Source: Candidatus Omnitrophota bacterium
GTDB taxonomy: Bacteria; Omnitrophota; Gorgyraeia; Gygaellales; Profunditerraquicolaceae
Assembly: GCA_028687205.1 (NCBI GenBank)
Contig: JAQUAP010000001.1
Coordinates: forward strand, 6,831 to 70,830
Direction: 5' to 3'
Length of the DNA: 64,000 nucleotides
Under the pieces are notes generated by a model, which saw only the letters and a list, made by a program, of their open reading frames with translations, did not search any database and was not told the origin of the DNA. Position 1 is the first letter of the stretch, and each line of letters begins with the position of its first letter. Below, in pieces: positions 37,451-64,000 of this stretch. Position numbers and translations under genes: made by a program.

Positions 37451-37470
37451 AATAAAACGAAAGTTAGCCT

Positions 37471-41879: not shown

Positions 41880-44800
41880 AATGATAAAACCAAAAGCCCA
41901 CACAGAAGACAGGGTCGTCTCCAAAAAAGAATCCAAGGAAGGATTCAAATCCAGCTTTAAGACTTGGATCCGTGTGGTGGCTTTTATTGTGGCAGCGGTA
42001 TTCTTACCTGAGCAGGTTGCCCAGGCAGTCGAGTATGACTGGCGCGTGCTCTGGCATAAACCTGCTATCGGCCTTCCCTCAAATAACGCATTTTCCCCGG
42101 ATTACCTCAAAAACGTTCAAAATATCAATGTTCCGCAAGCTGTAAGAAGCATCCTCAAAGATATAGCCAATAAGCCCATAATTTCCATTAAAATCTCGGA
42201 TAATTTGACCATAGAGCTGGATAAGCCCTTAAAAATGTCCAATCAGAGGATAGATGAGCTATTCAACTGGTTGGTGGGCAAACCCTGCGGTTCCAAGGCG
42301 CTTTATGACTTATTAATGTACCAGGGACTGTCCCCGCAGGGGACTGTCCCTGATTCTTTAGAGCAGGATATCGCGGTTTTTGCCCTGACCGTAGATATCT
42401 TAAATGATGTGCTCAAGCCGGAAGGCAACCCTAAGGTGATCAAGAATTCCCTTTATGCCTTAGCCAAGGCCTCAGAGTTCTTCGGCCTGAAACTTTATCC
42501 GGTTAAGATAGATTCGTTGCAGGAAACTACTCCTGCGCCTTTCATTGCCCATTTAAACGGCGATCACTATGTTTTAATCACCAAGATCAGCGGTGATAAG
42601 ATCTATTTTCTGGATGAGCACAAAGAAGAGTTCCTGCCTTTAGAAAAATTCCTCCAGGATTTTTCCGGATACGCATTAGTACAGGGACTGTCCCCGAAGG
42701 GGACTGTCCCTTTGAATGACGCCGAAGCCAAAAAGATCCTGGGCGCGCGTTCCAATAAGAAAGGTTACGCGGATATCTCGTCTTTATTTGAAGAGCCCTC
42801 CAGCAGCGATTTGTTGTTGGGTGCGGGTATTACTATAGCTGCCTGTGCCGCAGCTTCTTATTTAGGCCCGGCAATGAGCGGCGGCACAGCTACCTGGAAC
42901 ACAGGTAGTGCGGTAGCCTCTTTTGGCCAGGGAATGTTCTATAGCCAGATTGGCCAGGCAGCGACCAATATAGGTGTGCGTAATCTCGGAATGAATGCCA
43001 CTACTGCCGGGATATTCGGCACTGCAACTATCGGCGCGCTTACAGGCGGGACTTCTGCGTATGCTCAAGGCGCAACGGGTTTTAGCGGTATAGGCCAGGG
43101 CGCTTTAAACGGAGCTCTTTTAGGCGCGGCCAAGGCCGGAGCCAGCGTCTTCGCCTATGATATGCTGAAAGATACTAGCTTCTTCAAAAACAATCCTTAC
43201 ATCGGCAGGCAGTTTGCTAATTTAGCCGGCAGCGCTATAGGTTATACCGCTTTTATGGGAACTATGGGCGCTTTATCAGGGACAGCTTTAGACACAGGTT
43301 ACAAAATGAAAGTTTATGCGGCAGATGGACAATCTTACAAGTGGGAGTCTCCGCAGACTTTATCTCAAGGTGTGGGAATGGCCTTGGACAGCATGAAAGG
43401 TTCCCTGGTTCAGCAGGGCGTAGGTTTAGCCGTGGAATATGCTGCTTCAGAAGGCTGGTTAGGCGGCACTTTACAGAAGCATCCCGGTTATAGCCGTTTA
43501 TTAGGCGAACCCCTTGGCGGTTTCGCTGGAGCAAATGCCGGTAGCCTGACTACATATCAGAGCGTTATGAACGGGCTCCTCTCTGGCGGTGTCTCAATCG
43601 GCCTTACTGCTTTAGGCGGTAATTATGATGAGATTACGGGTAAAAATAGCCTGGGTATGACAAGAATGCAGATGTCCACTTTAAATTGGGCAGGTACAGC
43701 ATTAGCCTATGCCGGCACAGGCGCTTTAATAGCCGATACCGATAAAGCCAGCATATTTAAGACTGCCTTTGTAAAACGCCTTGAAGGCCTTAGTACAAAT
43801 TATTTAACTTTTGGCGGAACTTCTCCTCTTTCTACTGGAGGCGGTCGTGGTTGGTCTGAAGTCCAGTATATAGAGAAAATCTCCCAGCTTGCCGGTATCT
43901 CTGATTTTAAGGCTAACGCCGATTACGCAATGAAAAAAGCCGGCTATACCGATTGGAATAAATTTGTAGAAGACGGCCGCTTAAGCTCACTCATGCCCTC
44001 TATTTCTTATTCTTTGGTTAACTATGCGCAGTCCAGCCTTCATTATGCCGCGGTAAATAATCTTGTTGATACCGTGGGTTATTCCAAAACAGCCGCGGAT
44101 TTATTCGGCATCCCGCACAGTAAGATTATCGAACAGGAATTTAACAACGAAAAACACGCTTGGCTGGCGCCCATACAGCCGAATAAAACTGGCCCAATAG
44201 TCGGCGAGAATTACTTTAGTGGCTTAAAAGGAAGCGATATAAGAATAAGGATGGAGGATGGAGAGACCGTATTGCTTTCTTTACGCGCGGGCTTAAGGGA
44301 CCCTTTGAATACCAAGGTGAAAGAAGGAGATAATGAGTTGCTCTTTAGTAAAGAGCAGATTAGCCTTGCCGGCATAAAAGATAAGCGTAAAGACGGAATG
44401 GGCGAGATTAAGATAGTTGGCGAACGTAGTGATTTTTTACAGGGCGCCCTTGAGGAAATTTCTGCTAACGCCGAAGGCGATTTAGCAATTTTTGCCAAAC
44501 AGGATATCTCCAAGACCGATTATTATAAGGGGTCATATACTTTCCAATACAGAAAAGATGAGCCGACAATTTTGGATGTCTATACTTCAGGCAAGGTTAC
44601 CCAGAAGGACTATTGGTTTAACGATGAAAAACAGGTGAATGTCGGCAGGATGTATGTTTATGCGGATAATCCGATTAAGGCGAAGGAGAATAAAGATTAC
44701 CTGGATTATGCCGCGTTTCTCTCGCGCGCTGACGGCAAATACCCCGTAGACGCCTTAGGTTATCGTAAGCTAAGCAATGGCCAGATAGAAGTTACCGCAG

Positions 44801-47800: not shown

Positions 47801-50800
47801 AAAACGGCTGGCGTCCGGATTATGGCAAACAAGATATAGCCGGCCTGGTGAAGACAGTCTTGAATATGCCTGTTCTAGCTACTCAGAATAAGCAGGCAGT
47901 CGGCGACCAGGCTATCGGCGATAAAGAAAGCAGCCAGGTTTACTTTTTAGAACTTCTAAAAGAAGGCGCTGTCTTAGATTACAAGTATAACGAAAAGGCA
48001 GGCCAGGGCAGCTTCGTGCCCGCAAGCAAAGAATTTGATTCCAACTTTGCCGTTCTAACCCAAGCCTTCTATAAACATGACGGTGATTGGAAAGAAGCCG
48101 AGGTAATCACAAAGCCGAGATGGAACGAAAAACTGGGCTCTTTCGTGGTGAGTATCGATACAAAAGGCCAGGAGATAATTTTCTATAACCGCAATCCTCT
48201 GAACCAGCAATCTGACGAGAATGGAGCCAAGAAGAAGCAGGTTAATTTCGATAAAACACGCAAAAACGTAAACACTAAAGACTATCAGACAGAGGCAACC
48301 AGCGAGGAAAGGATTGAGCAGATAAGGGATAAGAACGACAAGCTTTTAGGCACGCTGGATGAAGGTTACGGGAAGATAGGTTTTAGCATGAACATGGCAG
48401 GAGACCTTTCTTCCATCGTTGGCCTTCCAGGCACACATCTTACCGTTAAGAATTCCGCCGAAGATCAGCTTATCCTGGAAGGAGAAAACAGTAAAGGCGG
48501 AAAGACCGAGCTGAAGTTATGGAACAATAAGGATTTTGATTATTACGTGGATGAGAAATACGGCGTATTTGCCAAGGATGCCAACTTTAGCGAAAAGGGC
48601 GTTATTAACAGCGATACCGTAAGCGGCAGGTTCAATCGATACGGCCAGAAGACCTATATGGTTAACGGCGAAGAGGCAATGGTAGTTATTGAGAATGGCA
48701 AAAATAAGTTAGTCTCCAAGAGGGTCTTTATAGAGAACAATATAGAAAAACCTTTGCGCGAATTGGAAGAATTAAACAAGACCAGGAAAGACCAATCCCT
48801 GGGAGGGCTTTTGGAAAAAACACGGGAATCCCTTGGAAAAGGAGACCTTGAAGGCGCGAGTAAATTTTTAAACAGGGCAGTAATTACCGAACAGCTCGGT
48901 ACATTATCCCCGGATAAGCAAAAGGAAATTTCCAAAAAATTCGGCCTTACTGTCAAGGGCGACAAGATAGAAGTATCTGATAAGACCGATTTTAACGGCC
49001 TGGGCAAGATGTTGGAGAGAATAAAGCTTACGGCTTTATTTGATATTCTTTCTACTGAGGCAGAGGCCAGTATTTCCAAGGATCCCGCCCTGAAGGCATA
49101 TTTTAATAACGGCCGCCTGGATAGAGAGAAATTTATTAATACAAAATCAGACGCCGCTACAAAGGCCTTGGTGTCTAAAGTACAGAAAACGCTTATCCAG
49201 GAGAACGGTTTGGATGCAGCATCGCAACTCGTAATAGTTAACGGCCGCTACTACTTAAGAGACAACAAGAACAAAGAGTTACTTGATCTTAAGACGAACA
49301 TGAAATATAAGATTAACGAAGATGGAACGGTAAGCGGCACGACAACTATCAACGGCGGTGATATCCGGATGAAGGACGGCAAACCGTGGATAGAAAATAT
49401 CAATGGTGCGAATATCGCCGTTACCACAAAAGGAATGTATCTATTGCTTGGTCCCGGAGAAAATCCGGTTCGCCTATATTTTGATCGTGATACGAATGTG
49501 TTCGGTGGCAAGCTTCGCCTGGTAATTAATGAACCGGATAAAGATGGCCTCATCTCCTATGGCCTGTCATTTGAATATAAAGGCGTTTCTTACAGGCCCA
49601 AGAATTTATATTTTTCCGACAAAGGTAAGGCGGTGGTCTTGGTCTTAGCTCCCGCAGCCAGGGAATTTACGTTTGAAGAGGCATCGGTAGGAATAATGAC
49701 TACAACCATGGTGCAAGATACAGAGGCACTGATATTGGATTTACGTGCAGGTTCGCCAAAGCCGCTTACTGCCTCATACACGGAGAATGTCAGTTTCGCT
49801 AATGGCATAACCCAGAGAAGGACGATCGATAATAAAGGCATAGAAAAAGTAATCTTGATGACTCCCGAAGGCAAATTCGAGCGTATGACGGCAATTGCTC
49901 AGGGGATATACAGCTACCGTTCTAACGAAACGGACAAGAAAGAACAATGGCGTTATTACAATAACAGCGGTGCAGAAGTCCCAGTAAAAGACATAAGCAA
50001 GGCGCTTGTGGATACTGCGCTTACTTCTGTCGGGCAGATGAAGGAAAATCAGCAGGCGCGGGTTGACCCGAGGAAGTTCCTGGATTCTCTAATAGATGGT
50101 ATAAATCGCGATATTGACTTTGCCGTCATTGATAGCAACACCGGCAAAGTCGAACAGTTGAAATTAGACGCTCTCTCCGAAAAGCCCGAGGCCCTGGCGC
50201 AGGCAGTCAATGAATTATGCCTTAGGCGCAGGTATGGCGTGGCGACCTTGGAGCAATTTTACAAGGAGTTGCAGCAAATAGTTTATAATCCTTCCTACGG
50301 GATATCCAACAGGTATATATTTTCTCGTATAGTTGATGATGCCTGGACATATAGGGAAATAGGCGGCTATGGTACTGGGACCGCTTTAACTATAGGCGGT
50401 ACTATAGGCGCATATATGACCGGCGGATTGTCATTAAAAGCAACTGCTTCTGGATTAGCCATCTTGGGAACTACTGCGGCATTAAGCTCCGCGGCATTCT
50501 ATTATGGCGCAACGGGGGAATTTATCGGAGCCAAGGCAATGGCAGAAGACGCGGCACTGGGCATGTTCCCCGGTTTAGGTGGTCTTGGCCGCACCCTAAA
50601 AACATTTAGACAAGTAGCAACTTTAAGTAAAGTTGTAGAGTTGGCAAGCGTAGGCAAATACGGGGCAATGCTCAACTCTGCCCTCTATAATACGAATAAT
50701 GCTATTTACGGGATTAACGGAGAAGTTGCTCCTCTTTCGCAAAAAGTAATTGCCGCCGGTTATTCTCTCGCGCCGGGGGTCTTAAATGCAGGCAGCCGGG

Positions 50801-52043
50801 CAGCCAGGTATTTTGCTTTAACCGATACTGCCGGTGTTGCCATTGGCACCGGACTATATTCGGCTGCTACTTTGGGAACTTCGGAAATTACCGCTCGCCT
50901 TTCAGGAACAAGCCTGGATTGGGGCGATCGGGCCTTTATTGCTGGCACGTCTTTAATTCCGGGAGCGGCAAGATTAGGGGCATTGAATACCTCCAGCAGC
51001 AATTTCTTGTTCGCTACCCTGCGTTCTCCGGCTACACAGTTCTGGGCCAACTATAACTTAGGCTTAGGTTATACCAATGCCATTGCTTTAAATCAGAATG
51101 TAGATCTTACCACTTTAGCCAAGACAGCCGGGTATAGTTTGCTCCTTACCTATTCTATGCTTGGCGGCGCCCAGGGCATATCAAAAGGATTAACTACATT
51201 AAGAAATGTTCCGGCGTTTTCACAAAATCTTAGCCCCGCCAAGTCTTTAATTTTTTCCACTGCTACCGGAGCGGGAGTCGGTATAGTAGCCAATAGAGCA
51301 GTAACCGGAGAATGGTTTGGTGACAGCTGGGGCTGGTATGCTGCAGGCGGCGCATTGGCCGGCGCAGGTGCATACGGAACAGGACGCGCACTCTCATCAG
51401 CATTAACCCCGGCATTAAAAGATTTTAAATTTGGATTTAATTCAGGCCTAAACGGCCAGTATACTTCTGGGCTCGGTGGTACTTCCGAGAGTATGGGAGT
51501 AAGGGCAGGTTTGGCCGTGAAAAAGGTCGGCGACTTCGCTGCAAGAGATTTGAGCACAAAGGCCGTCTTTGTCGCTTCCACTGCTACCGGTACGGGAGTC
51601 GGTATAGTAGCCAATAGAGCGGTAACTGGAGAATGGTTTGGAGACAACTGGGGTTGGTATGCTGCAGGTGGTGCATTGGCCGGCGCAGGGACATACGCAA
51701 GCGCTAAAGGCGCAAGCAGGCTCATGCAGACCGAGACCGGACAGAAGTGGCTAGCTGGTCTTGACCGTGCAAAATATCGTACACAAGAAACAATCAGATC
51801 AACCTCAAGCGCCCTAAATGACCTGGCTAAGCCGGCAGTGACAGGCTTTAAGACAGAAATGGCAGGTTACAAGAAGATCCTTTCGCAGAGCGTAAGCGCA
51901 ACAGGAGAAGTTATAGGCATTAACCAGCCGATGACCTTTCTTGCAGGTTCTACCGCAGGCGCAATAATTGATTATACGGCCGGCGATAAGCGCGCTAATC
52001 TTAAACCCGCTGCGGCAGGCGCCCTGGGCCGTATTTTAATTAA
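41880..52043 (+). CDS. Giant ORF, N-terminal segment (3,387 codons): signal-anchor, C39-like cysteine-peptidase signature, long Gly/Ala/Thr-rich regions; probably the first part of a single protein of more than 7,300 aa
   Basis: ATG at 41880 after an in-frame TAG at 41863; translated line by line with no stop until TAA at 52041..52043; not present in the ORF track. C39-like KPCGSKALYDLL...NGDHYVLITKISGDKIYFLD. Confidence 0.65.
51255..51689 (+). repeat. Two ~115-nt near-identical direct repeats (51255..51369 and 51575..51689) inside the giant ORF
   Basis: Encode FSTATGAGVGIVANRAVTGEWFGDSWGWYAAGGALAGAG and ASTATGTGVGIVANRAVTGEWFGDNWGWYAAGGALAGAG; about 90 percent nucleotide identity. Confidence 0.75.
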
Positions 52044-55000
52044 CCCGGGAAGAGGTATCTTATCCGCTGCATCAGGCGCGGCCAATTATTGGCGCATTGA
52101 CAACAACTTAGGCAGCAACCTGGATAAGATTAAGGCTACGGAGCGCTTTGTTTTAAATAAGGCAATGCGTGATAATATCGGCGGTATACCTTCCGGGATG
52201 CTTTCTTTTGCCTTCTATACCGCAGATTCTTATATGCAGGCATATTCCGAAAGCTACACTGTGCGTGCCATAACGCACACCGCGCTCCATCCCTTGCAGG
52301 TAATAAAGGACATATTCACTTCTATAGACCTGACCACAAAAACCATCAACTCTCTTAGTAGCGGTATTCCTAAGGATAAGTGGGTAGAGGTTGGTATGTT
52401 CCTGGGCGGGATGATTGGTGCAAGTAAAGGTTATTCTAATCTTGGCAGCAGGCTGGCAACCGAAGCTAAAGCGTCTTCATTCACTTCGTTTATGGCGAAT
52501 ACCCATACCAGCGCCGCCAGCCTGGTATATTTGAACGCAGCCTTCACCTTCCTGCCGCTTATAACTGACGGCGGCGCAGGTGATCCTCAGGCCTGGTTTA
52601 AGCAGCTTTATTACGGAGCGTATAATATGGACCAGTCTGCCCAGGGCGCAATGACTATGGCGCTTGCCTGGAATGTATTGAGAGCAGGGTTGGGTAGATT
52701 AAGGCAGACAGGCGCAGGACAAGCAGTTGACAAGCTGGTTAATAACCATCTTGAGCACGCCACTCCGGCAGTAAAATACGGCCTGCCTCTTGCGATGACC
52801 GTGGGCGGAGCAGAGCTTTATGCGCTCAATAAAGATAAGCAAGATGACCTGCAAGCTAACTACCTGGCTCATACGGGCTTAGTTATTGCCGGCATAGGCG
52901 CAATGCTTCTAGCTAACAAGATTGAAAAATCCAGCGCTTACCGCTGGTTACGCGAAGAAGGTAAGCAAATGCCTCAGCCGAATGCTTTGGGCCTGGAGGC
53001 AGCTGAGAAGACAACGGCAAAAACACGGACCGAAAAAATATTTGGTACTCATAGCAGCCGTTTGTATGGCAAGGAGTGGGTAAAGACAGAATTGAAATAT
53101 AATATCCGCTGGGGCGGCATAGGGGCCATTGCCGGATTAGTAGGGGCTGCGAGTTCTGGCAAGATAAAGGATTGGCATGACCGCATAGAATATTTAGTAT
53201 TAGGTGCAATCGGCGGTATGGCCATCTTAAGAAACCTGCCTGCGCTTGTGAAAACCGGCGCACGCGTAGGAGTTAAGGGTACTGAAATTACCGGCGCAGG
53301 GGCTTTGACCTACGGCGCCAAGAAGATGACCTTTGATCCATTAGCGGGCTGGATAGAAGGTGAACTTGGCTATAGAAATGATTTTAATTTTACCAGGGCA
53401 ACTACGCCGCACTTGTTCAGGGCAGGTGATACTCAGGATGACCTAGTATACGCCCTTTCTATGGGAGTTGTCGGCTTGGGCATTGCCAAGGTCAGCACTA
53501 CTGCTATAAAGGCATACCGGGAAAAAGGCGCCGCAGGATTAGAGAAGCCGGAGGGAGTAATAAATAAGGGTTTCCTCACCAAAGCCGAGCAACACCTTAT
53601 GCGTTCCGGCCAGGATCTTGAACCGTTTTTACAATCTTGGTCTAAGGATTGGGGCAAGAACGTACTGAGTTCTGTAGGTACTATGGCCGTTGGTTACGGG
53701 CTTTATAACTGGGGTAAAGAAGGAGAAGCAAGAAACAAGGATTTATCTACACTCTGGAAGTATGCCGGTGTGGCGATGGTGGGTATGGGCCTGCTGAAGA
53801 CAGTGGGTATCTTAGGCGGCGACTTGAATTTAAGGGCGATTGCCAACCTACGCGGTAAAAATCAGGCAATAGCCGGCGCTATGGCTACGGCAGCAGGAGC
53901 GGGATTATTCTTATGGGGCTCTTCGGATGACCTCAAAGATGCACAATTAGCCGGGCTTGATTTAGGTAAGATTATTCAAGTAAGCGGAGGAGCTTTAGCT
54001 GCCGTAGGTGCTTTAAATATGTTTGCCGGAGTAAGAGGGATGCGTCTTCAGGGCAAAAATTTAGAGGCAGCGGTTAATAATAGCGCATTAAGCCGGTATG
54101 CAGGAAACAGCCTGGCAACGGCCAAAGGCATAATCTGGGATTTTGGCGCAAGGGGCACCACGGTGAACCTGTTTACCGTTATCGCTCCACTCTTTGGGGT
54201 TATTGCTGCCACCTCCTGGTTTACCCAGAAATATATCAGTTCGTCTTCCTATAGCAAATTAGAAAAGACTATCTTAGATTATACCGCAGGCGCTTTCTTG
54301 AATAATGATATCAAAAAAGGCCCGCTGAGCATAAATACTTATTCTGATATCGTCGGCGGCAAGGGTGAGAAATGGGCAGAGGCAAAGGGCTTATGGGCTA
54401 AATTAAGCATTCTCGGACTCCTTGCTGACCGCGCATACACCGCCTCCCTCTTCGGAACAGACGCCAACGCAAAGGTAAAGGGCGATTTTAAGTCAATGGC
54501 CGATGCTGTTTCAAAGCTGGGTTCCTCTGGCCGCATCTGGAATGCCCTGGATAAGAGTAATGTCAGTTTTTCTGCTGCCCTGGCTCTCCTGTATCCGGTT
54601 GCCGAGCCTTTCTTCTCCAATATAAAGCCGGGCAATTTCGGCTACAAATTCCAGGCCGTTGGTAAGGCTATGGAGGATGTGTTCGGCGGCGCTGCAATAG
54701 CAGGGATTTCTCCTCGCGCCGCAGCCCAGGCCTCAAGCCCGTTAAGGATATTGAATATGATTACTACCGGGACCATAGAAGAGACGGTTACCGAACAGGC
54801 TATCCAGATGATACTGAACATAACCCCGTTAGGGCCGGTATTAGGCCCGCAGGCCGTGGAGGTCATACAGGAAATCGCCTCTCCTTTTGGCAACGCGCAT
54901 ATGAACTATATTCCTTCCCGCGCCATGGCGAAGAATTACGTCAACGGTAACCTGCAAAGAGTACAGGGATTAATTGACAAAGTAGATGCCAAGCTGGCAA

Positions 55001-58000
55001 AGCCGGACGCAAATACGGATATTTTGAATCATCAGCTCGGCCGTTTAAACACTACTAAGCGGTTCTACGAAAACATAGCGGGTAACCTGGATTTGGCTAA
55101 TGGCAGCGCAGAAGGCGTTATTGGGGCCATGCTGCCGTTATTGCAATCTAAGATTAATTCTCTCGGCAGCGTTGGGTTAGCAGCTATTAGGAATAATCTG
55201 GGTGCGATGGATGCCGTTGAATTCAAGGCAAAAGGGCTCTATTCATTAGTGAACCAGGACACCAAAGATATCGTTACGGCGCAGGCCTCTTCGGACGGCA
55301 AGACTGTAGATGTTGACGCCGCACAGAACCTCAACTTTAATATAGACGCTTCCGGCAGGCTTTCCATCAGGCCTAATGTCGTCGGCCATTATAATATCGG
55401 CGGCGGCGCGCACGAACTCGTCCATCTCTTTGTGGATAAGAACCGCAGTAACGAGAAGATTGCCCCGTTAGTTAGACAGATACAATCTTCACTTGGCTAT
55501 AAAACCGTAGGCTCTGTTCCGCTTGAGATCAGTGAATGGGGCCCTAATGAAATGCTTACCCAGTATTTCAGCATGCTCTTCTTGGCTAAATATATCGCTA
55601 ACCATAAGCTTGATTACAGCACTGACAGCAGCGCTTCTTCCATCCAGGATCTGGTTGAGCGCACTTTAAACAGGAGATTCGATGATTTAGGCCAGGCTAT
55701 GGCCAGCGTGAACGCTATGGCGCAACCTGATCTGCTGGCGCCTAAAGTAGCAAGCGATGACTTCATGGCGCACGTCATTGACTTCGTGCAGTGGAAGAAC
55801 GGCAACAGGGTTGAGGTCAATTATGAAGCCAAAGTCGGCCAGCTTAAATCTATGCTGCAGGAAAAGGGCATTCATTTGGAGCAGGCTGGGTCAGCTGAAT
55901 TCAAGAAAGCAGGTATTTACTTGAATGCTGACGGTAACACTACAGAAGCCGGCCAGGGCGGCGATATCACTGTACAGATAAATAGAGACGTGCAGGATAA
56001 AGGGGCAGCTTACGAAGCATATGTCTTGTATCATGAAACTGCCCAGGCACTGCGCGAACAGATAGGTAACCAGGATACAGTATTAAAAGAGTTTGGCTCT
56101 GTGCGCGAGCAATTCCAGAAGACGCAAGACAAGAAAGCCGTCCAGGCGTTAGATGATTTTATGGATTATTTAAAAACCTATGATAGTGTGCTCAAGGATT
56201 ATGTTGTTGGGTTAGTGGAGGCAGGTAAAGAAGCCAAGGTTTCTTTAGAGGATCTGACATCTATTAAAGCGCGTATCCAGGCATCATTCCATTATGATAA
56301 TGAAGATAATGCGGCCGTAATCAGCGGTTTGGACAAGCTGATTAGCGGGCTTCAGGAGGGTGGTCAGGAGGTTACGGTAGCAGATATAAGAAAGCTTGCC
56401 CGGCAGTCTGTCAATCCAGAATATCACAGAGCTATCGAATTCTGGGGGCATACCGCGCCGTTGTTATATACCCCCGAGCTTGCCAAGAGTATTATAGGTA
56501 AGAATAAGGCATTAAAGAGGTTAGCCGACTCTATCCAGAAGTATCCGCTGCTAGCTGATTTCTTAAGGAAACAAAACGAGGCATTGGGTATGCCAAAGAT
56601 CGCCACCTCTTCACCAGCTAGAGATGCTGGAATTAAGTCCCGCATTTTAGCCGCTGCCCTGGCTGCCTTGACTGCCGGGACGACTGCTAAGTCGAGTTCA
56701 CCGGTTGACTCCAGCTCGCCTGCGGAGAGGACCCAGCCTATGGCTTTGCCGGTTGCGGCTGCTACAGCAGCGCAGGTTGCGCTTGGCTCCCTGGTTAATA
56801 CTAACTTTACCCAGCAGGTAATCGTACCTGGCAGCAGCCCGGTAATTCCTGCAGGCGTAACATTATCAGCATTACTGCCTAATACTCCATTTGCCAAGAA
56901 CCTTATTATTGCAGGTTATAACTCTGACACTGCCCCGCCTGCAGGCGCCATCGCGCACAACTTTATTTCCAATGTAGTGCCAGCTTCAAGCTCAGTAATT
57001 GAGAAGTTGACAGGTTCCCAGATTGTAAGCCCCGAAGAAACCAGTGGTTCGACTCGTGTAAACTCCAAAACCGCGAATAGCGGCGTTTTTGTTCCTACCG
57101 AATCTTCTTCACCGGCAATAAACAAAGATAAGTTGATAGAATTAACGGAATTATTGCTTAAGGAAGCACCGCGTCTTACTGGCCAAATTAAGTCTCGTGG
57201 ACGCCAGAATATAGACAGGTTAGCCCAGAAGAGAATCGCTGTTTTTGCAGCTAAGCATGGAGTAACTGCAGAAAAGGCAGGAGAGATTATTGACTATCTT
57301 GCTGCCTATGAAGAAATGCTGGGAGAGTTAAAAACAATACAGGATGATAATAAGAAACAGATTAGGTTAAATGGGGAAAGTAAGGAAGTGGATATAAGCA
57401 TTGAAGATCTATTCAGCAGGCCGGAAATACAAAAAGTTGTTAACAGGATTAACGATAGAGATCTGGGGGATATGAACGAAGAGCGTATCCGGAAGATTTT
57501 CGATATAGCAGAAGAGGTTTTAGCCGTGCTTATTACTACTGTTCCGGAAGCAGAAGAATTATTCAATAAAAAGTTTGCTGAACAATTCACAGACACATAT
57601 ATTAAAGAGGCGATTACAGATATAGGTAAGAGAATGGAGAGAATGGAGGACAACCAGAAAACACAAGGAAAAGCTATAGAAACACAAGGAAAAGCTATAG
57701 AAACACAAGGAAAAGCTATAGAAACACAAGGAAAAGCTATAGAAACACAAGGAAAAGCTATAAAAGGAATAGATACAAGGTTAGGAGAAGTACAAAGAGC
57801 CCAGGAACAATTTAGAGCAGATGTTAATGCTAGATTTATTGTTATAGAAGCAGCACAGGTCGAGGTCAATGAAATTATTGTAGCCATCAATAACTGTATT
57901 GCAGGAGCCCTGCGTAATTTTAAGGTTAAGCAAGGAGTTTGGAGAATCAGAGAAGAATACAAGAGATTAGGCAAGAAGTTTACTATTTTGGAGGTAAAGA

Positions 58001-61000
58001 GAATTATAAATAATGTGGCCGCCCAGTTAGATCTGTTAACTGAACGCGTTAGAATTTTTGGAGCTTCCGAGAAAGAAATCGCAGATCTTCCCGAAAATAT
58101 TAGAAAAGATTCTATAGTGCTTATATCTGAAGGCGATAAATTGCATGCTGTGCCCATAAAGGCAATGGTATTAAAGAAAGATGAAAAGGAAGATTATTAT
58201 TTCTATGCCCAAGAAAATAATGTACAGGGCGGGACTGTACTGAATAACAGGAGAATATATTTATCAGAATTGGTTAGACTCAACGGAAAGATAGTTATAA
58301 TTTCCTATGAGGAGTATAAAGATTCTTTTAAATATGAATTCTCTGATCAAGAGATAGCTCAATTAAAAGGAGAGGTTGAGGGAACAGGTATCGGCGGCGG
58401 CGCAGGAACCGGCCAGGGTGGAGCCGGTGCTGGCGCTGGCGCCGGAGGCAGCCCGTTAGGCGGCGGAAACGCTGGCGCCGGTACTGATGATGATAAATAT
58501 GATACAGCCGGAAGCCCGATGTTAGATACGCATGATATAAAGCCATATAATATTCCTGAAGTCAATATGACAATAGACCCTGCATCTTATCGCGCTACGG
58601 CTGATCTTGCTCCTCCTGTAGCTGCTCTTGCTTTGAATCCTGCAATAAATACTCTCACTGAAGAATTATTCGTGATTGAAAAAGGCGATAAGGCCTATGC
58701 GGGTAAAACGCTTGAAGAGGCCTATGATAAAGCTTATGGCTTAGAAACAGAGGAAAAGCCCGTAAGGAAAGCAAGTATCTTTAGCTGGGTTAATGAACAT
58801 CCTAAGGCGGTAAGTTTAGCTTTGGCAGGCCTGGCTTTTGGCCTTGTCTATGTAGGCGGGCCGTTACTAAATAATATAGGTAATGCCTGGGCTGCAGACC
58901 TCCAAACAGAACCGGTAGCCCCGCAGACAGTAGATTCATTTGCAGTTAAAAAAGGCGATACTCTCTGGAAGCATTTCAGGGCGGACTGGAAGAAGGCATA
59001 TGATGCTAACCCGCAAATTCACGGCCGCTTAGGCGAAAAGATAGGCCCGCAATACCCGGATACCAAACAAATCGTAATTATCTATCCTAACGAGAAAATC
59101 AAGAAGCCCGCTGTTGGGCCAGTTCAGAAGGCGGAAGAAAAGGTTACTGCTAAGCCGGAAACCAAATTAAAACCTGAAGAAACTCTAGCACAGCCACCTG
59201 CCGGACAAGAGGTAATTTCCAAGGAAGATGCGGTAAAGGGAAAAAGCGTAATAAGCCATATAAAAGAATTCTTTAATAATAATAAGGCAACAGTATCTTT
59301 CGCTTTAGGATTGATTATTACCGGAATCTTAGTGAGGGTTTTCTGGCCGAAAATTACCAAATTATGGAATAGTTACAGAGAAACAGCAGCTAAAAAAGCA
59401 AGAGAATCTGCGGCGAGAGAAGAACAGGAGAGATTGGCTAAAGAGGCGGAGGCCAAAAAGGCAGTTGAAGAGAGAGCAAGGTTAGAAAGAGAAGCAGCGG
59501 AAAGGTTGGTGGCAGAGAATGCTAAGAAAGCCGCGGAAGAAAAAGCTAAGGAAATTAAAGATTATCTAGGTTATTCCGAGTCAGGATATGAGGTTACGGC
59601 CAAAGAGGAAGTTTATCCTGAAGCCACAACTGGAAACCAGGAAGGTCAAATCTTAGCAGATAAAGAGCCCTCATCTATTAAAGATAATATTGCTTTAGGA
59701 GACAGATACTATAGTGAGGGCAGATACTCAGAGGCTCTCCGGGCTTACCAGATAGCTGAAGAAGCTCTTCTAAATTTAAAGAGCGGATTCGATAGAATTC
59801 AGCTTAATACTGAAAATTGTTGCGAAGAAGAACTTAAAGCTAATGGGGCGACCAAAAATGAAATCAATAAATTAAATGGTAAATTAGTCAGAGTTGAAGT
59901 AATGGTTAGCAAGTGTTATTCAAAGTTGGGTGACCAGAAAAAAGCAGTTGAGGTCTTAAATTCTGCTAAGTTAATTAATCCTACTGTTTTTAAACAAATT
60001 TTAGCTCAAGAAGAAGCAACCTCTTCGCCGCTTAACCAGATACCCGTTGTTCCTGCTGCGGTAACCATAGTAAGAAATGCCACAATAACCAGCGCTTCCC
60101 TCAACAGATTAGCCGCCGTAATCGCTTACGTAAGAAGTCTGAAGAATAATCGCGCTGATCTTGAAAGGGTATTTAGCGCCCTGGAGACCAAAGCTACAGC
60201 AACCGGCAGGAACATTCATAATATACTCGCTCCTCCGTCACTGCGCGCTGCTGCATCTGTGGGAAGTTCACCTGTTGAAGTTTACAGCAACACAAACGGA
60301 GGAGGGCAAAATGAAAAACTTACTGCAGGAATTCGAAGAGGAATTAAAGATGTTAGAGACGCAATACTTAATAGAGGAATTAGCGGAAAGACGCTTAAGA
60401 GCGGTCCAGGTAAGCCTGGAAGACCGTGGTATCTTGGAGCCGACTGCTACGCAAGAATAAAGGCATTCTTACAGGAAAACCGGCTTCATAGCTTAAGTGA
60501 GCGTGTAATTCTGCTTATTCGTGCTCCGCCTTACCTATTATTATATCGTGCAAACACAGTTGTAATTGCCGCAGTTCGTAATTCCTTATTACCAGTCTTA
60601 TCCAATACCAAATCAATCACAAATAACCTTATAAACTTAACTTTAACCAAGCTGCTAACTCTTTCCGTGGCAGGAGTGTTAGCGGCTTATGTTGTTGTCT
60701 GGGTGGCGCAGGAGCCCTCCTCCAGGGAAATGACCCCTCTTGTTGCCACCCTGACAACAATAATAATAGGAGGTGCACTATGTGTCCTATCAATGTCAAT
60801 GAAATCAGAATCGACCACATCGTTGACTTTACCAAGGACAGGACTACGTTTGCTGCAGCCCGCCAGAATGACGGCCACCTTAGGATCTTTCTTATCAATG
60901 ATCTTACCGGTACCGTCTACACTCGTAATGGACGTGCAGATAGCTGGGAGGAAGTTATCGGGGCTAATTGCGAGCTTATTAGGGCAAAGATCAGCGACGC

Positions 61001-64000
61001 AAGGGGCTATGGGGTCCCGGTCTACAAAGTCAACGCAGAACACAACTAATCTAGCCTGGGCAGGACTCAACGTTCCTGCCCTGGCTGGAGCAGTTTCATC
61101 CAGCCCGGTCAGCAACATCGAGAAAACCATAGGTAGATTTATAATACTGCCTTTGTTGGTTATAGGCATTTTATGGGGCGGATATAGGCTAGTTGATTTT
61201 ACTTTTGGGAAGACATCTTCGCTTGTCCATGAATGGGCATTATCTCAGAAACAAAACTTAGGGTATAAAGCTTACAATTTACTCACCGGGAAAGAAATAC
61301 CTTTTGACGAGATAGCCGTTACGAATACCCTGGTTATCCTCGGTAAGGGAGCAAAAGTTTCTAGCGATGACATCTATTATGGCAGGTGTATTTATTTCAT
61401 CTTCATCGATAACGGTGGGAAAGCAGTTGCTGTTCTGCATGCTCCCGGATCCAAGGACCTAGTCGAGTGTCTTGCCGATACAATGGAGAATGCGAAGGGA
61501 TTATTAGAAAAGAATGGTGTTAAAGTTTACGGAGCGATAGCTATTACTGGTTATGTAACCAGGGAAAATGAGAGAGCAATTGCTATGTTGCCTAAAAATT
61601 TGAAGCTCTTTACAAAAGAGACTGGCCAGCACACTACTGAGGTTATCGTATACGCAGATGGGAAGAACATTTCAGTTATCGGCCTTGGCCCGATTTATCA
61701 AGGGCCTATTTCAGGATTTATCCAGCAGCCTTCTTCCAGTCCGGTGGAAGTCACAAGAAGAGAAGCGTTAAAGCTGCTGCTTGGCATATTAGTTATCGCC
61801 AGCCAGGCCAGCGGAATTATCGGCTGCGCAAACAAATCCAAGGATATTGCTCCGGAAGAATTATTAGCCAAGTTGAAGTCCGTTGTACCCGAAGGAATAA
61901 TCAAAAAAGCTGCCCAGGCCTGGGGAGTTGAGCCGGAATTATTAGCCGCCATTGTTATGGAGGAGGTTGAATATACCCAAAACCTTAACTTGGCAAGCTA
62001 TATACTTAAGGAATATATTCAGCCTACTTTTATAAAATTTGGCATCAACGGGACATTCGGCATAGCCAGGACTGCCTTGCCGGATACTTTAAATGATACG
62101 TTCTGGAAGAATATCCAGACCTACGGCGAATCTTTGAAAATAAGGACTCAGGGTAAGCGGTCTTTTGAAGAATTAATGGAAGTTGTAAAAGTTGCCCGCG
62201 AGCGCAGGAACCTGAAATCGGTCAGGTCCGCAGAAACAGCTCTGCTTTACGATGTATTCAGTGTGCCGGAATTCAATGTATTCATAAGCGCGTATTGGAT
62301 TAGCATAAAATTAAGATTAAACGGCTCAAATCGGGCCCTTTCTAAGGAAGAAAAGGCGATTATGCGCTATAAGGGCATTGTCAATGCCGGTCAGCGCCTT
62401 GAAAGGACTAAATTTTTCTATTATTGGCTAAAGGAAAAGCAGGTATTGGCAACTTCTTCCAGCCCGGTGGGCGCCTATGTTACTACGCACGCAACCTCCA
62501 GCCCGGTTGAGGAAGCGGCCGTTGAGGCTATTAAAAATCTGGAGTCTCCGGAAATTACCGATCGCCGCAGAGCTTTTAAAACAATGACCGACAACCCCTG
62601 GTTAATCGAAGAATGGTTAACTGTCGAATGTATCGAGGCGCTTGTTAAGGTCATCCAGGATGACGAGAATGCCGAAGTAACCCGCGGCAATAAGTTGATG
62701 AAAAAATACAATACGCACGAACAAGAGGGCATAAACTGGTATCATGTAAAGCACAGCGCCATTTATCTCCTTGCCACATATCTCCTTGAGCCTATCGCTA
62801 TAGAAAAATTGGGTTTAGAGAAATTCATATATCTTCTGTCAGTCATTGAGGGCGAATGTGGGGCCAAGAGCAGAGCGCCTTGCGTTGCCGATTTGTCAAA
62901 GCGTTTAGTCAGCAGGATAAATGAGAAATATGGATTCTTGGGATCTTCCAGCCCGGTGGGAGCTTATGTAACCACCTCCCTTAAAGAAGTTAGAATCTCC
63001 GAACAAATAAGCAAAGAAATAACCGCATATCTTAATGGCGTAAAAGAACGCTTAGAATCTGATTTTAATAATGCGCAATATTCTGCCTTACAGAAAGATG
63101 TACTCAAATTGGTTGAAGAAGTGAGAGGAAGATGGCTTGAGAAAGGCGCAGACGAAGAAACTTATAAGATCTTATCTTTTACCTTTGCCAAGGGCGGCGT
63201 GCATAAAGAAATTGATGTAGCAAATAAGGGCGCTGCGTTGATTGGACGGATAGATTTACTGTCGTTAGGAATCAAGCCAGATAAACAACATATAGAAATA
63301 GAAAGAATCTTTAAAGAAGTGCGGAGGGTTATTAGGGATATTTCAGAGATTGTGGCTTATCCTGGCCCTATTCCTGTCGCGAGATTAGGAGGCGGAGAAG
63401 CCGGGATTTATTACGAAGCACTAGACCCTGTCTTCATTGCCGAAAAAATACTTAAAGAATCAATCACCGCCTCCAGCCCGGTTAAAACAATCGCAGAGCT
63501 TGAGGCAGAAATTGAAGCGTTAAAGGCGGAAAATGCTGCATTAAGAAGGATAAACCGCATTGACCCATTGACTAAGTTGCATAACAGGAGAGATTTTGAC
63601 GATGTCCTTAAAGGGATGATGAAGAATGCCGACAGGAACCCGGGCAGGCGCCTGCTCTTTGTGTTGATAGACATTGACTTCTTCGGCATAGTTAACAAGA
63701 TATTCGGCCATGATGCCGGCGACGTAGTGTTGAAGTCATTCGCCAGGACGATTAAGAATAAGATAAGGCCGGCAGTTGATTATGTGGCCCGTTATGGCGG
63801 CGAAGAGTTCGCGCTCTTATTGAACGGCGTAGATGCAGAAACGGCAAAAGCGAGAATAATCGGCAGATGCGCTGAGGCAGTGAAGAAATTGGAACTTCCG
63901 GAGTTAGAGGTTAGCCTTGAGGCAGGCGTGCTTAAAAACAAGATAGCCAATGTTGCCGGCGCGGACAGGACAAAAATGCATTTTGCCGTTATTCATCAGT
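51967..64000 (+). CDS. Giant ORF, continuation (open to the window end, 4,010+ codons): HExxH motif, 5x heptad tandem, Gly-rich linker, LysM-like module, TM segments, coiled coils, TPR/HEAT-like repeats, C-terminal GGDEF (GGEEF) domain
   Basis: Frame opens after TAA at 51964..51966 and has no stop through 64000 (spot-checked across the region); overlaps the previous segment by 77 nt; removing one G in GGCGGCCC (~52018) joins the two as ...KPAAAGALGRILINPGRG...; end region DPLTKLHNRRDFDD...ARYGGEEFALLL. Confidence 0.6.
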   Translation, partial: MDYTAGDKRANLKPAAAGALGRILINPGRGILSAASGAANYWRIDNNLGSNLDKIKATERFVLNKAMRDNIGGIPSGMLSFAFYTADSYMQAYSESYTVRAITHTALHPLQVIKDIFTSIDLTTKTINSLSSGIPKDKWVEVGMFLGGMIGASKGYSNLGSRLATEAKASSFTSFMANTHTSAASLVYLNAAFTFLPLITDGGAGDPQAWFKQLYYGAYNMDQSAQGAMTMALAWNVLRAGLGRLRQTGAGQAVDKLVNNHLEHATPAVKYGLPLAMTVGGAELYALNKDKQDDLQANYLAHTGLVIAGIGAMLLANKIEKSSAYRWLREEGKQMPQPNALGLEAAEKTTAKTRTEKIFGTHSSRLYGKEWVKTELKYNIRWGGIGAIAGLVGAASSGKIKDWHDRIEYLVLGAIGGMAILRNLPALVKTGARVGVKGTEITGAGALTYGAKKMTFDPLAGWIEGELGYRNDFNFTRATTPHLFRAGDTQDDLVYALSMGVVGLGIAKVSTTAIKAYREKGAAGLEKPEGVINKGFLTKAEQHLMRSGQDLEPFLQSWSKDWGKNVLSSVGTMAVGYGLYNWGKEGEARNKDLSTLWKYAGVAMVGMGLLKTVGILGGDLNLRAIANLRGKNQAIAGAMATAAGAGLFLWGSSDDLKDAQLAGLDLGKIIQVSGGALAAVGALNMFAGVRGMRLQGKNLEAAVNNSALSRYAGNSLATAKGIIWDFGARGTTVNLFTVIAPLFGVIAATSWFTQKYISSSSYSKLEKTILDYTAGAFLNNDIKKGPLSINTYSDIVGGKGEKWAEAKGLWAKLSILGLLADRAYTASLFGTDANAKVKGDFKSMADAVSKLGSSGRIWNALDKSNVSFSAALALLYPVAEPFFSNIKPGNFGYKFQAVGKAMEDVFGGAAIAGISPRAAAQASSPLRILNMITTGTIEETVTEQAIQMILNITPLGPVLGPQAVEVIQEIASPFGNAHMNYIPSRAMAKNYVNGNLQRVQGLIDKVDAKLAKPDANTDILNHQLGRLNTTKRFYENIAGNLDLANGSAEGVIGAMLPLLQSKINSLGSVGLAAIRNNLGAMDAVEFKAKGLYSLVNQDTKDIVTAQASSDGKTVDVDAAQNLNFNIDASGRLSIRPNVVGHYNIGGGAHELVHLFVDKNRSNEKIAPLVRQIQSSLGYKTVGSVPLEISEWGPNEMLTQYFSMLFLAKYIANHKLDYSTDSSASSIQDLVERTLNRRFDDLGQAMASVNAMAQPDLLAPKVASDDFMAHVIDFVQWKNGNRVEVNYEAKVGQLKSMLQEKGIHLEQAGSAEFKKAGIYLNADGNTTEAGQGGDITVQINRDVQDKGAAYEAYVLYHETAQALREQIGNQDTVLKEFGSVREQFQKTQDKKAVQALDDFMDYLKTYDSVLKDYVVGLVEAGKEAKVSLEDLTSIKARIQASFHYDNEDNAAVISGLDKLISGLQEGGQEVTVADIRKLARQSVNPEYHRAIEFWGHTAPLLYTPELAKSIIGKNKALKRLADSIQKYPLLADFLRKQNEALGMPKIATSSPARDAGIKSRILAAALAALTAGTTAKSSSPVDSSSPAERTQPMALPVAAATAAQVALGSLVNTNFTQQVIVPGSSPVIPAGVTLSALLPNTPFAKNLIIAGYNSDTAPPAGAIAHNFISNVVPASSSVIEKLTGSQIVSPEETSGSTRVNSKTANSGVFVPTESSSPAINKDKLIELTELLLKEAPRLTGQIKSRGRQNIDRLAQKRIAVFAAKHGVTAEKAGEIIDYLAAYEEMLGELKTIQDDNKKQIRLNGESKEVDISIEDLFSRPEIQKVVNRINDRDLGDMNEERIRKIFDIAEEVLAVLITTVPEAEELFNKKFAEQFTDTYIKEAITDIGKRMERMEDNQKTQGKAIETQGKAIETQGKAIETQGKAIETQGKAIKGIDTRLGEVQRAQEQFRADVNARFIVIEAAQVEVNEIIVAINNCIAGALRNFKVKQGVWRIREEYKRLGKKFTILEVKRIINNVAAQLDLLTERVRIFGASEKEIADLPENIRKDSIVLISEGDKLHAVPIKAMVLKKDEKEDYYFYAQENNVQGGTVLNNRRIYLSELVRLNGKIVIISYEEYKDSFKYEFSDQEIAQLKGEVEGTGIGGGAGTGQGGAGAGAGAGGSPLGGGNAGAGTDDDKYDTAGSPMLDTHDIKPYNIPEVNMTIDPASYRATADLAPPVAALALNPAINTLTEELFVIEKGDKAYAGKTLEEAYDKAYGLETEEKPVRKASIFSWVNEHPKAVSLALAGLAFGLVYVGGPLLNNIGNAWAADLQTEPVAPQTVDSFAVKKGDTLWKHFRADWKKAYDANPQIHGRLGEKIGPQYPDTKQIVIIYPNEKIKKPAVGPVQKAEEKVTAKPETKLKPEETLAQPPAGQEVISKEDAVKGKSVISHIKEFFNNNKATVSFALGLIITGILVRVFWPKITKLWNSYRETAAKKARESAAREEQERLAKEAEAKKAVEERARLEREAAERLVAENAKKAAEEKAKEIKDYLGYSESGYEVTAKEEVYPEATTGNQEGQILADKEPSSIKDNIALGDRYYSEGRYSEALRAYQIAEEALLNLKSGFDRIQLNTENCCEEELKANGATKNEINKLNGKLVRVEVMVSKCYSKLGDQKKAVEVLNSAKLINPTVFKQILAQEEATSSPLNQIPVVPAAVTIVRNATITSASLNRLAAVIAYVRSLKNNRADLERVFSALETKATATGRNIHNILAPPSLRAAASVGSSPVEVYSNTNGGGQNEKLTAGIRRGIKDVRDAILNRGISGKTLKSGPGKPGRPWYLGADCYARIKAFLQENRLHSLSERVILLIRAPPYLLLYRANTVVIAAVRNSLLPVLSNTKSITNNLINLTLTKLLTLSVAGVLAAYVVVWVAQEPSSREMTPLVATLTTIIIGGALCVLSMSMKSESTTSLTLPRTGLRLLQPARMTATLGSFLSMILPVPSTLVMDVQIAGRKLSGLIASLLGQRSATQGAMGSRSTKSTQNTTNLAWAGLNVPALAGAVSSSPVSNIEKTIGRFIILPLLVIGILWGGYRLVDFTFGKTSSLVHEWALSQKQNLGYKAYNLLTGKEIPFDEIAVTNTLVILGKGAKVSSDDIYYGRCIYFIFIDNGGKAVAVLHAPGSKDLVECLADTMENAKGLLEKNGVKVYGAIAITGYVTRENERAIAMLPKNLKLFTKETGQHTTEVIVYADGKNISVIGLGPIYQGPISGFIQQPSSSPVEVTRREALKLLLGILVIASQASGIIGCANKSKDIAPEELLAKLKSVVPEGIIKKAAQAWGVEPELLAAIVMEEVEYTQNLNLASYILKEYIQPTFIKFGINGTFGIARTALPDTLNDTFWKNIQTYGESLKIRTQGKRSFEELMEVVKVARERRNLKSVRSAETALLYDVFSVPEFNVFISAYWISIKLRLNGSNRALSKEEKAIMRYKGIVNAGQRLERTKFFYYWLKEKQVLATSSSPVGAYVTTHATSSPVEEAAVEAIKNLESPEITDRRRAFKTMTDNPWLIEEWLTVECIEALVKVIQDDENAEVTRGNKLMKKYNTHEQEGINWYHVKHSAIYLLATYLLEPIAIEKLGLEKFIYLLSVIEGECGAKSRAPCVADLSKRLVSRINEKYGFLGSSSPVGAYVTTSLKEVRISEQISKEITAYLNGVKERLESDFNNAQYSALQKDVLKLVEEVRGRWLEKGADEETYKILSFTFAKGGVHKEIDVANKGAALIGRIDLLSLGIKPDKQHIEIERIFKEVRRVIRDISEIVAYPGPIPVARLGGGEAGIYYEALDPVFIAEKILKESITASSPVKTIAELEAEIEALKAENAALRRINRIDPLTKLHNRRDFDDVLKGMMKNADRNPGRRLLFVLIDIDFFGIVNKIFGHDAGDVVLKSFARTIKNKIRPAVDYVARYGGEEFALLLNGVDAETAKARIIGRCAEAVKKLELPELEVSLEAGVLKNKIANVAGADRTKMHFAVIHQ
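57661..57765 (+). repeat. Five tandem copies of a 21-nt unit ACACAAGGAAAAGCTATAGAA (in-frame heptapeptide TQGKAIE x5) inside the giant ORF
   Basis: Four perfect copies plus one variant ending AAA. Confidence 0.85.

Follow-up and report, generated by a model that had tools for sequence, protein, structure and literature searches.

Giant genes have been described in the Omnitrophota since 2022-2023. The proteins reported by West-Roberts 2023 (bioRxiv 10.1101/2023.11.21.568195) have an N-terminal C39 domain that adjoins a signal peptide, contain numerous transmembrane segments as well as GGDEF domains, and in most full-length members include SecA_DEAD or SecA preprotein-binding domains; their genes are preceded by gspD/E/F, rcpC, a Rotamase_2 isomerase gene and class III signal peptide genes, and PilZ genes lie downstream of most of them. 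Open reading frames (ORFs) of >20 kb occur in 77 of 116 Velamenicoccia species, and peptides of the giant protein of V. archaeovorus were 3-fold higher in attached cells (Seymour 2023, PMC10066038). A more recent compilation holds 916 giant proteins of up to 147,155 aa and recognizes a C39 architecture cluster as well as flanking Tad cassettes (Nielsen and Lui 2026, bioRxiv 10.64898/2026.06.07.730766). Here we analyse a stretch of 64,000 nucleotides from contig JAQUAP010000001.1 of a Candidatus Omnitrophota bacterium (assembly GCA_028687205.1), referred to below as the window, whose last 22 kb are occupied by a single ORF of this kind. The giant ORF alone is no news, being another case of a known phenomenon in hosts that are tiny and probably predatory. 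Two details appear to be new beyond the giant-gene papers: a phylum-wide leader with a predicted riboswitch for c-di-GMP (the cyclic dimer of GMP), and a short peptide motif, SSP, at the junctions between protein modules.

The gene under study, and the two elements that open its product, are the following.

41881..63999, plus strand: giant ORF, 7,373 codons from the first ATG, with its 3' end outside the window
41965..42027, plus strand: signal peptide or signal anchor; its N-terminus is basic, V32-L42 form the hydrophobic core and aa 47-49 read AQA
42238..42750, plus strand: C39 (double-glycine type) cysteine peptidase, Pfam PF03412, E 3e-9, with Cys136, His229 and Asp245

The stop-free frame extends on the plus strand from 41869 to 63999, the last complete codon of the window, and its 7,377 codons are still open at the edge. 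The at least 22,119 bases open from the ATG at 41881, its first start codon, compare with the size class of >20 kb of Seymour 2023 and the set of >90 kb of West-Roberts 2023. Given the base composition of the region, the probability of encountering no stop in 7,377 codons is ~1e-192. The remaining five frames contain 214-579 stops each, with a longest open run of 295 codons, and 50 shuffles of the region yielded open runs of at most 201 codons. Codon-usage log-likelihood, trained on 17 neighbouring genes, prefers the giant frame in all 24 consecutive segments of 900 nt. Stop-codon reassignment as the source of the long frame is ruled out, because the neighbouring genes end normally under table 11. 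The initial annotation was thus right about a stop-free frame of more than 22 kb and 7,300 codons that is open at the edge; its ATG at 41880 has to be moved one base on, and the two frames that it distinguished, the second from 51967, are a single one, since 41881 and 51967 are both 1 mod 3. The absence of the ORF from the supplied track, which had also been pointed out, follows from the design of that list, which omits ORFs running off the window.

The N-terminal module is the conserved part of the protein. The segment WIRxVAFIVxAVFLPEQVAQAVEYDWRVLW is nearly invariant among homologues; none of 29 homologues deviates at Cys136 or His229, and an alignment of 11 sequences (A2) shows no variation at these two or at Asp245. 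In the AlphaFold model the C39 part (residues ~120-290) reaches a predicted local distance difference test score (pLDDT) of 80-92, and its best Foldseek matches in the PDB are LahT150 (6mpz, E 1e-5), PCAT1 and the ComA peptidase domain. The conserved module of ~290 aa thus has, in the model, a C39 fold in which the Cys-His-Asp triad is intact, which agrees with the signal-anchor and the C39-like Cys/His signature proposed initially. It shares with the C39 domains of PCAT1, ComA and LahT150 the fold (Foldseek E 1e-5 to 1e-2, target-normalised TM-score 0.62-0.73) and the catalytic residues, and differs from them in lacking a fused ABC transporter and in having Trp in place of the usual Gln at -6 from the Cys, with Asn at -7. 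Pfam finds no ABC domain in the ORF or in the neighbouring genes, so that the C39 domain, although present, is not that of a PCAT. Since it follows a signal peptide, it probably resides outside the cytoplasm.

A search with the first 900 residues returned 57 protein matches with a best identity of 72-73%, most of the named ones being partial 'cysteine peptidase family C39 domain-containing' proteins from metagenome-assembled genomes of Candidatus Omnitrophota or Omnitrophica. The conserved N-terminal module, used to scan a single genome for each species, gave 80 loci (best identity over the module 79%), mostly under Omnitrophota or Omnitrophica titles, with 19 from uncultured Planctomycetales or Planctomycetia and a few under other names. 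In 74 of these 80, the homologous ORF meets no stop before the fetched sequence runs out, and is open for up to ~3,650 codons. Conservation declines steeply along the chain: only the first 290 residues are kept in all loci and the next 440 in ~7 of them, and beyond aa ~730 even the closest relatives, L001 and L002, are unrelated to the window, except for L002 at aa 3381-4499. For the far end, an exhaustive HMMER search with aa 6130-7200 gave four proteins only, among them P0091, a 2,155-aa fragment from another Omnitrophota assembly that shows 39% identity over 572 aa and 68% over the GGDEF part. The C-terminal 974 aa as query returned generic GGDEF matches only.

Two further features tie the gene to the published family.

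22613..38319, plus strand: Tad / type II secretion-like pilus locus that precedes the giant gene
63472..63999, plus strand: coiled-coil stalk and GGDEF diguanylate cyclase domain (predicted), with the Pfam match at 63559-63900 and GGEEF at 63796-63810

The pilus locus runs in the order Rotamase isomerase, RcpC, secretin-TonB_C, TadZ-TadA fusion, DUF192, Flp-type pilins, TadE/G-like and T2SSF. Its position directly upstream confirms the earlier placement of the gene beside Tad pili and matches the description by West-Roberts 2023. L001 has the gene order of the window (pilin-like genes, a TadG-like gene, T2SSF, then an OprB porin), and T2SSF lies no more than 10 kb upstream of the homologous ORF in 41 of the 80 loci. 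The match to PF00990 scores 98 bits over model positions 3-113 of 161, being cut by the window end, and the last 176 residues include the motifs DPLTKLHNRR, DIDFF..N..GHDAGD and GGEEF (aa 7306-7310); a search for an RxxD site found none in the visible residues. The domain is a predicted diguanylate cyclase. An earlier description as a terminal GGDEF domain with GGEEF thus holds for domain and motif and fails for 'terminal', the ORF being still open. In P0091 the GGDEF domain is completed after an insertion and further modules follow, which makes it an internal domain.

The giant ORF is, then, one more, ordinary member of a known family. With the Omnitrophota giant genes, typified by the 'Archaeovorin' of V. 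archaeovorus LiM (39,678 aa), it shares the phylum, judged from its homologues, the N-terminal signal and C39 domain, many hydrophobic segments, few annotatable domains, a poorly conserved body, an internal GGDEF and the Rotamase/RcpC/secretin/GspE-like ATPase/class III signal peptide/GspF locus directly upstream; it differs in that just 7,373 of its codons are visible. The initial annotation as a giant mosaic, membrane-associated gene of an uncultivated lineage is borne out. The architecture, which had been called unusual, is not so for this lineage: a C39 domain next to a signal peptide, many transmembrane segments, GGDEF domains and the preceding locus have all been reported before in its giant genes (West-Roberts 2023; Seymour 2023; Nielsen and Lui 2026). 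Since C39, a weak TPR and GGDEF are the sole domains found, we file it with the C39-led giant genes and not firmly as an 'Archaeovorin'; Pfam finds no methyltransferase, glycoside hydrolase, NUDIX or dockerin domain in the visible part. We consider it likely that 41881-63999 represents the 5' 22 kb of a genuine Omnitrophota giant gene of the published C39-led family, linked to a Tad locus and preceded by a leader acting as an ON switch.

The leader contains the following elements.

41563..41590, plus strand: sigma-70-like promoter (TTGACA, 16-nt spacer, TATACT, extended -10 TG)
41611..41708, plus strand: c-di-GMP-I-class riboswitch aptamer, best Rfam match RF03167 (c-di-GMP-I-GGC) with 67.5 bits versus a gathering score of 59, E 6e-16
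41693..41745, plus strand: intrinsic terminator, with a hairpin at 41693-41735 and the U-tract CUUUCUUUUU at 41736-41745
41784..41885, plus strand: upstream ORF (uORF) of 33 codons, whose TGA overlaps the ATG of the giant gene (ATGA)
41822..41839, plus strand: conserved leader box CUGGGGGUAAGGGGGGAA (YUGGGGUAAGGGGRA), ~45-60 nt before the start codon

The promoter, a consensus match only, agrees with 11 of 12 hexamer positions, lies ~20 nt 5' of the aptamer and is kept in the closest leaders (nhmmer). The aptamer, and with it the whole leader of 340 nt, is kept 5' of homologous ORFs. Rfam thresholds were passed in 17 of 20 loci tested, 15 as RF03167 and two as RF01051, and in 73 of the 80 loci a covariance model built from 71 aptamers locates an aptamer immediately 5' of the homologous ORF. 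In the 71 homologous aptamers, pairing holds for 98.5% of cells; both sides have changed in 162 cells, whereas shuffles give 42.5 (none of 500 attains the real count) and slid partners 3-43. Riboswitch control of the giant gene, as first suggested, thus rests on an aptamer that clears its Rfam gathering score and is kept across the phylum. The terminator borrows its 5' arm from the aptamer, whose own 3' strand AGCCGGGCUGCCGAAUU it uses (shared bases 41693-41708), and forms the minimum-free-energy hairpin, with -25.3 kcal/mol for a 75-nt fragment that includes two small downstream hairpins. A hairpin with a U-tract recurs in 65 of 71 leaders, and its stem displays compensatory changes (C-G in 13 and U-A in 38 at position 8; G-C in 59 and A-U in 5 at position 10). 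Because one strand serves both structures, aptamer and terminator exclude each other, from which we infer the direction of control: the leader is predicted to be an ON switch.

No Shine-Dalgarno sequence is evident before the ATG at 41881. Of the 80 leaders, ~62 contain a GGGGUAAGGGG-like box that keeps much the same spacing to the ORF, and the YUGGGGUAAGGGGRA consensus is followed by a UAUAGGUAA-like box. Relative to the ORF, the GGGGUAAGGGG-like box falls in each of the three phases (29/23/13), which points to conservation at the RNA or DNA level. The uORF is probably incidental, a by-product of the box conservation: about every second leader has a similar small ORF, whose frame and end point differ from case to case, and a conserved leader peptide is ruled out, as the conserved letters occur in all three phases. 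As a separate observation, the giant frame is open upstream through the leader box in 11 loci (L007, L017, L031, L040, L053, L056, L058, L064, L067, L069 and L074), where the first in-frame ATG would add a short GxRG-containing N-terminal peptide; the true start in these loci is uncertain.

The covariance model finds six further aptamer copies only in the 1.17 Mb searched (loci and window), all situated several kb upstream of the giant gene in relatives.

L045 862-971, L015 218-381 and L037 1433-1580: extra aptamers before Flp-type pilin genes
L017 69-211 and L053 1428-1556: extra aptamers before genes for large signal-peptide proteins (2,089 aa in L017, 2,504 aa in L053)
L059 5778-5945: extra aptamer before an ORF of 177 aa

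These copies suggest a small c-di-GMP riboswitch regulon for attachment genes. In the c-di-GMP-I (GEMM-I) riboswitches RF01051 and RF03167 the leader finds its closest described counterparts, with which it shares a score above the gathering threshold, a two-helix aptamer with strong covariation, a place in the 5' leader of envelope or attachment genes and an intrinsic terminator as expression platform. It differs in the size of the controlled gene, at least 22 kb here and probably far longer in relatives, and in a nearly fixed tie to one gene family across the phylum. The logic has precedents: in Clostridioides difficile, c-di-GMP riboswitches are known to precede genes for pilins and adhesins, and the predator Bdellovibrio is known to express one such riboswitch RNA at a high level. 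Full-text searches turned up nothing linking Omnitrophota or Omnitrophica to a riboswitch or c-di-GMP, or Velamenicoccus to c-di-GMP, and the word riboswitch is absent from West-Roberts 2023, Seymour 2023, and Nielsen and Lui 2026; prior notice in the paper defining RF03167 is possible.

The second new detail lies in the C-terminal third of the visible chain.

56608..63483, plus strand: zone of short modules split by SSP(V/L/I/A), often SSSPV (aa 4910-7201)
61753..61821, plus strand: internal Tat-like twin-arginine motif and lipobox right behind an SSSPV junction (TRREALKLLLGILVIASQASGIIGC), aa 6625-6647
61858..62460, plus strand: candidate muramidase-like module, tentative, placed by its position relative to the P0091 module

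SSP occurs 13 times in the 2,473 aa from aa 4910 on, versus 0.38 expected, and twice in the first 4,900 residues of the ORF. The other ORFs of the window (12,201 residues) hold five copies versus 1.8 expected, one of them followed by V/L/I/A/M. The motif is also enriched in P0091 (8 versus 0.3 expected), P0093 (10 versus 1.1) and P0094 (4 versus 0.2), and stands at the same module boundaries in the window and P0091, for instance directly ahead of the coiled coil of the GGDEF module. The sites use differing Ser codons, which rules out SSSPV as a DNA-level repeat and indicates selection at the peptide level. We read SSP(V/L/I/A) as a module junction, and possibly also a processing site; the giant-gene papers of Omnitrophota leave it unmentioned. 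Right behind one such junction, the window has a twin-arginine signal-like sequence with a lipobox, SSSPVEVTRREALKLLLGILVIASQASGIIGC, and P0091 has the signal-like SSSPVKMDRRGFLKLAG at the equivalent place. The P0091 module that follows matches Pfam T6SS_Tse3_cat with 27.3 bits versus a cut-off of 27; its counterpart in the window has no Pfam match, resembles it weakly (E 0.13) and yields a predicted structure with a pLDDT of 41, which is unusable.

Why should signal-like sequences occur in the interior of a protein, when a Tat (twin-arginine translocation) or lipoprotein signal normally has to be N-terminal? One explanation is that the chain is a polyprotein, cut at the SSP(V/L/I/A) junctions by the C39 domain or another protease into modules that then use their own signals, such as the Tat-like lipoprotein signal at aa 6625-6647, the giant protein being a delivery format. 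The excess of SSP in the C-terminal third with its peptide-level selection, the equal boundaries in P0091, the enrichment in P0093 and P0094 and the twin-arginine motif behind the junction in both proteins would all fit, as would the suggestion by West-Roberts 2023 that C39 or S8 domains cut giant proteins. On the other hand, C39 peptidases cut after Gly-Gly-type sites and not after Ser-Pro, the signal-like segments could as well be internal membrane anchors or relics of gene fusion, and the motif is not enriched outside the C-terminal third: the first 4,900 aa of the chain have just two copies of SSP, and the first 3,600 aa of 49 homologues hold four versus 2.3 expected. We therefore entertain cleavage into modules as a tentative idea and lean against it. 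MARTX (multifunctional autoprocessing repeats-in-toxin) toxins offer a parallel in being very large secreted or membrane proteins with a cysteine protease, unrelated modules and short recurring junctions; there is, however, no sequence relationship, the window has neither RTX repeats nor type I secretion genes, and processing is hypothetical in its case.

An alternative also has to be weighed for the leader RNA, which might sense another ligand, either a different cyclic dinucleotide or that of the GGC variant, or might work as an OFF switch. The best Rfam family is RF03167, at 59-67 bits versus a gathering score of 59, and such variant classes are candidates for altered specificity. Yet the base following GCGC/ACAC is A in 71 of 71 aptamers, that of the window included, where the RF03167 model has the G that defines the variant and replaces the intercalating A (A47 of Vc2 in the mapping that we assume), and the other two pocket positions match the canonical class as well, giving G20/A47/C92 in Vc2 numbering, so that c-di-GMP is the expected ligand. 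Under the 15 RF03167 matches lie 15 suppressed, lower-scoring same-clan matches, as would be expected if each locus also matched a second c-di-GMP-I family, and two more loci are best described by the canonical RF01051. An OFF switch is hard to square with a terminator built on the aptamer's own 3' strand. Both variants of this alternative appear unlikely to us, and c-di-GMP acting through an ON switch is retained as the preferred reading of the leader.

As to the continuity of the gene, L001 and L002, from independent assemblies, are collinear with the window over the upstream genes and aa 1-729, L002 is collinear again with aa 3381-4499 at 30-34% identity, and P0091, also from an independent assembly, is collinear with aa ~5850-7373. 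No sign of chimerism was found, the orphan middle part being without a collinear independent assembly. A chimeric assembly, or a string of once separate genes that lost their stops and whose internal starts give the real products, could be read from the fall of GC content at third codon positions (GC3) to 0.31-0.36 at 57.2-60.8 kb versus 0.53 in neighbouring genes, from the resemblance of modules behind SSP junctions to protein N-termini and from a body that for the most part has no homologue able to confirm the frame, but is highly improbable given the negligible chance of a frame this long, a coding signal that is positive in every segment, the same unbroken frame in 74 of 80 related loci, the passage of P0091 through most of the low-GC3 region and the junctions in one frame, and published complete genomes holding such genes of up to 147,155 aa.

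Several points nevertheless weigh against the likely reading of 41881-63999 as the start of a riboswitch-controlled giant gene of the published type. The best label of the aptamer is that of the GGC variant, and c-di-GMP, though expected, is a prediction made from sequence. A further, unexplained layer of control is suggested by the GGGGUAAGGGG box and by the absence of any good Shine-Dalgarno match at the ATG. Pfam detects neither SecA_DEAD nor the glycosyltransferase/HEAT set of the published 'Archaeovorins' in the 7,373 visible residues; the SecA_DEAD domains might be encoded past the window end. For some 85% of the protein no family could be detected, and its role in adhesion and cell-wall attack is consequently borrowed from the literature. 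None of the independent assemblies reaches across every joint of the 22 kb on its own. Finally, the gene end, the total length and any PilZ genes fall beyond the window, no public contig carrying this gene came to light, and a metagenome scan with the last 354 aa yielded no close relative, so the rest of the gene was not recovered.

How might the expression of such a gene be controlled? At low c-di-GMP the terminator would form and transcription would stop after ~150 nt. Bound c-di-GMP would keep the aptamer closed and prevent the terminator, allowing RNA polymerase to read into the giant gene. The messenger could be supplied by the FIST/kinase/REC-GGDEF set at 18498-22140 and later by the giant protein's own GGDEF domain, which would give, together with the Tad pilus, a self-reinforcing commitment to an attached or predatory state. 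The many hydrophobic segments would insert the protein in the envelope, where it may take part in adhesion to prey or host and in cell-wall attack, as has been proposed in the literature. An attachment programme gated by c-di-GMP would agree with the higher abundance of V. archaeovorus giant-protein peptides in attached cells (Seymour 2023), and the extra aptamers before genes for pilins and secreted proteins, together with the PilZ genes downstream of giant genes (West-Roberts 2023), link the switch to attachment. Taken to its full extent, the hypothesis would combine a phylum-wide, self-feeding c-di-GMP ON switch with a polyprotein cut at SSP, freeing modules with Tat or Sec signals that include a muramidase-like lipoprotein; we consider this combination doubtful.

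If the combination were true, one RNA switch would launch the whole attachment-and-attack programme of ultra-small predators. How and when cells of ~0.2 µm can afford genes of tens to hundreds of kb is a question to which a conserved c-di-GMP ON switch, if it holds, would be a concrete answer, and one that is testable in vitro without culturing the organism. The riboswitch would tie the giant protein, the Tad pilus, the PilZ genes and the GGDEF domain into one second-messenger circuit, and the SSP junctions give proteomics a precise spot at which to look for processing of giant proteins.

The remaining features of the visible chain are located in its body.

42778..44130, plus strand: first Gly/Ala/Ser/Thr-rich, mildly hydrophobic tract (aa 300-750; G+A+S+T 0.42-0.48)
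44131..50250, plus strand: hypervariable charged body (aa 750-2790), ~2,000 residues between the two Gly/Ala/Ser/Thr tracts
50251..54780, plus strand: second Gly/Ala/Ser/Thr-rich tract, with hydrophobic segments (aa 2790-4300)
55411..55425, plus strand: single HExxH motif (GGGAHELVHLF), one versus 0.03 expected by composition
57659..57762, plus strand: perfect in-frame tandem repeat, 21 nt x 5.0 (TQGKAIE)
58939..59118, plus strand: LysM-like stretch (FAVKKGDTLW...IYPNEKIKKP), a pattern resemblance only
59692..59757, plus strand: TPR-like repeat, TPR_2 with 26.2 bits versus a cut-off of 27

The first Gly/Ala/Ser/Thr tract is kept only in ~7 of the closest loci, and the charged body has no Pfam match and almost no similarity even to L001 and L002. 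A Kyte-Doolittle scan reveals ~11 distinct strong hydrophobic segments along the chain in addition to two long Gly/Ala-rich hydrophobic tracts. Several elements named in the initial annotation are thereby recovered: the G/A/T-rich low-complexity tracts (two, at aa 250-750 and 2750-4250), the internal hydrophobic helices and the heptad tandem. Others survive in part. The HExxH motif is there, whereas its assignment to a metalloprotease is left without profile support, the region of aa 4300-4960 matching nothing in Pfam, PDB sequences, the protein database or the homologues; of the TPR- and HEAT-like stretches, TPR persists as a weak match below the cut-off and HEAT has no profile match. The LysM-like module likewise lacks profile support, as Pfam gives no LysM match even at E 10.

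At the equivalent place P0091 (aa ~260-320) has a different heptad, TAATAKE x 8, in place of TQGKAIE, which indicates that the repeat array turns over quickly. GC3 at 57181-60780 contrasts with ~0.45-0.55 elsewhere in the ORF, and this low-GC3 stretch (0.31-0.36; neighbouring genes 0.53) may have been acquired or rebuilt recently.

Within the Tad locus, the secretin (24418-26055) carries a C-terminal TonB_C domain, and a TadZ-like ParA/MinD ATPase is fused to a TadA-type secretion ATPase in one ORF of 719 aa (26059-28218). The pilin cluster of the window is preceded by an ORF-free stretch of 812 nt (30840-31652) in which Rfam and the riboswitch model find nothing; a riboswitch before the pilin genes of the window was thus considered and none found. 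Genes for a FIST sensor, a HisKA/HATPase kinase and a REC-GGDEF regulator adjoin the locus on the minus strand (18498-22140), and this set could be a stand-alone source of c-di-GMP feeding the riboswitch. A PAS histidine kinase is encoded beside the Tad locus as well (16260-17921, plus strand).

Between the Tad locus and the giant gene, a family of palindromes with arms of 25-27 nt (AAAGGGGACGTTTCTATTTTTT) occurs at 38325-38374, 39249-39315, 40047-40068 and 41357-41423, giving six matches versus none in shuffles. They bracket a gene for an IS200-like Y1 transposase (ORF 39368-40045) and that for the OprB porin. L001, the closest relative, has no transposase at the equivalent place, and palindromes and transposase together look like an arrangement of the REP/RAYT type (repetitive extragenic palindromes with their associated tyrosine transposase).

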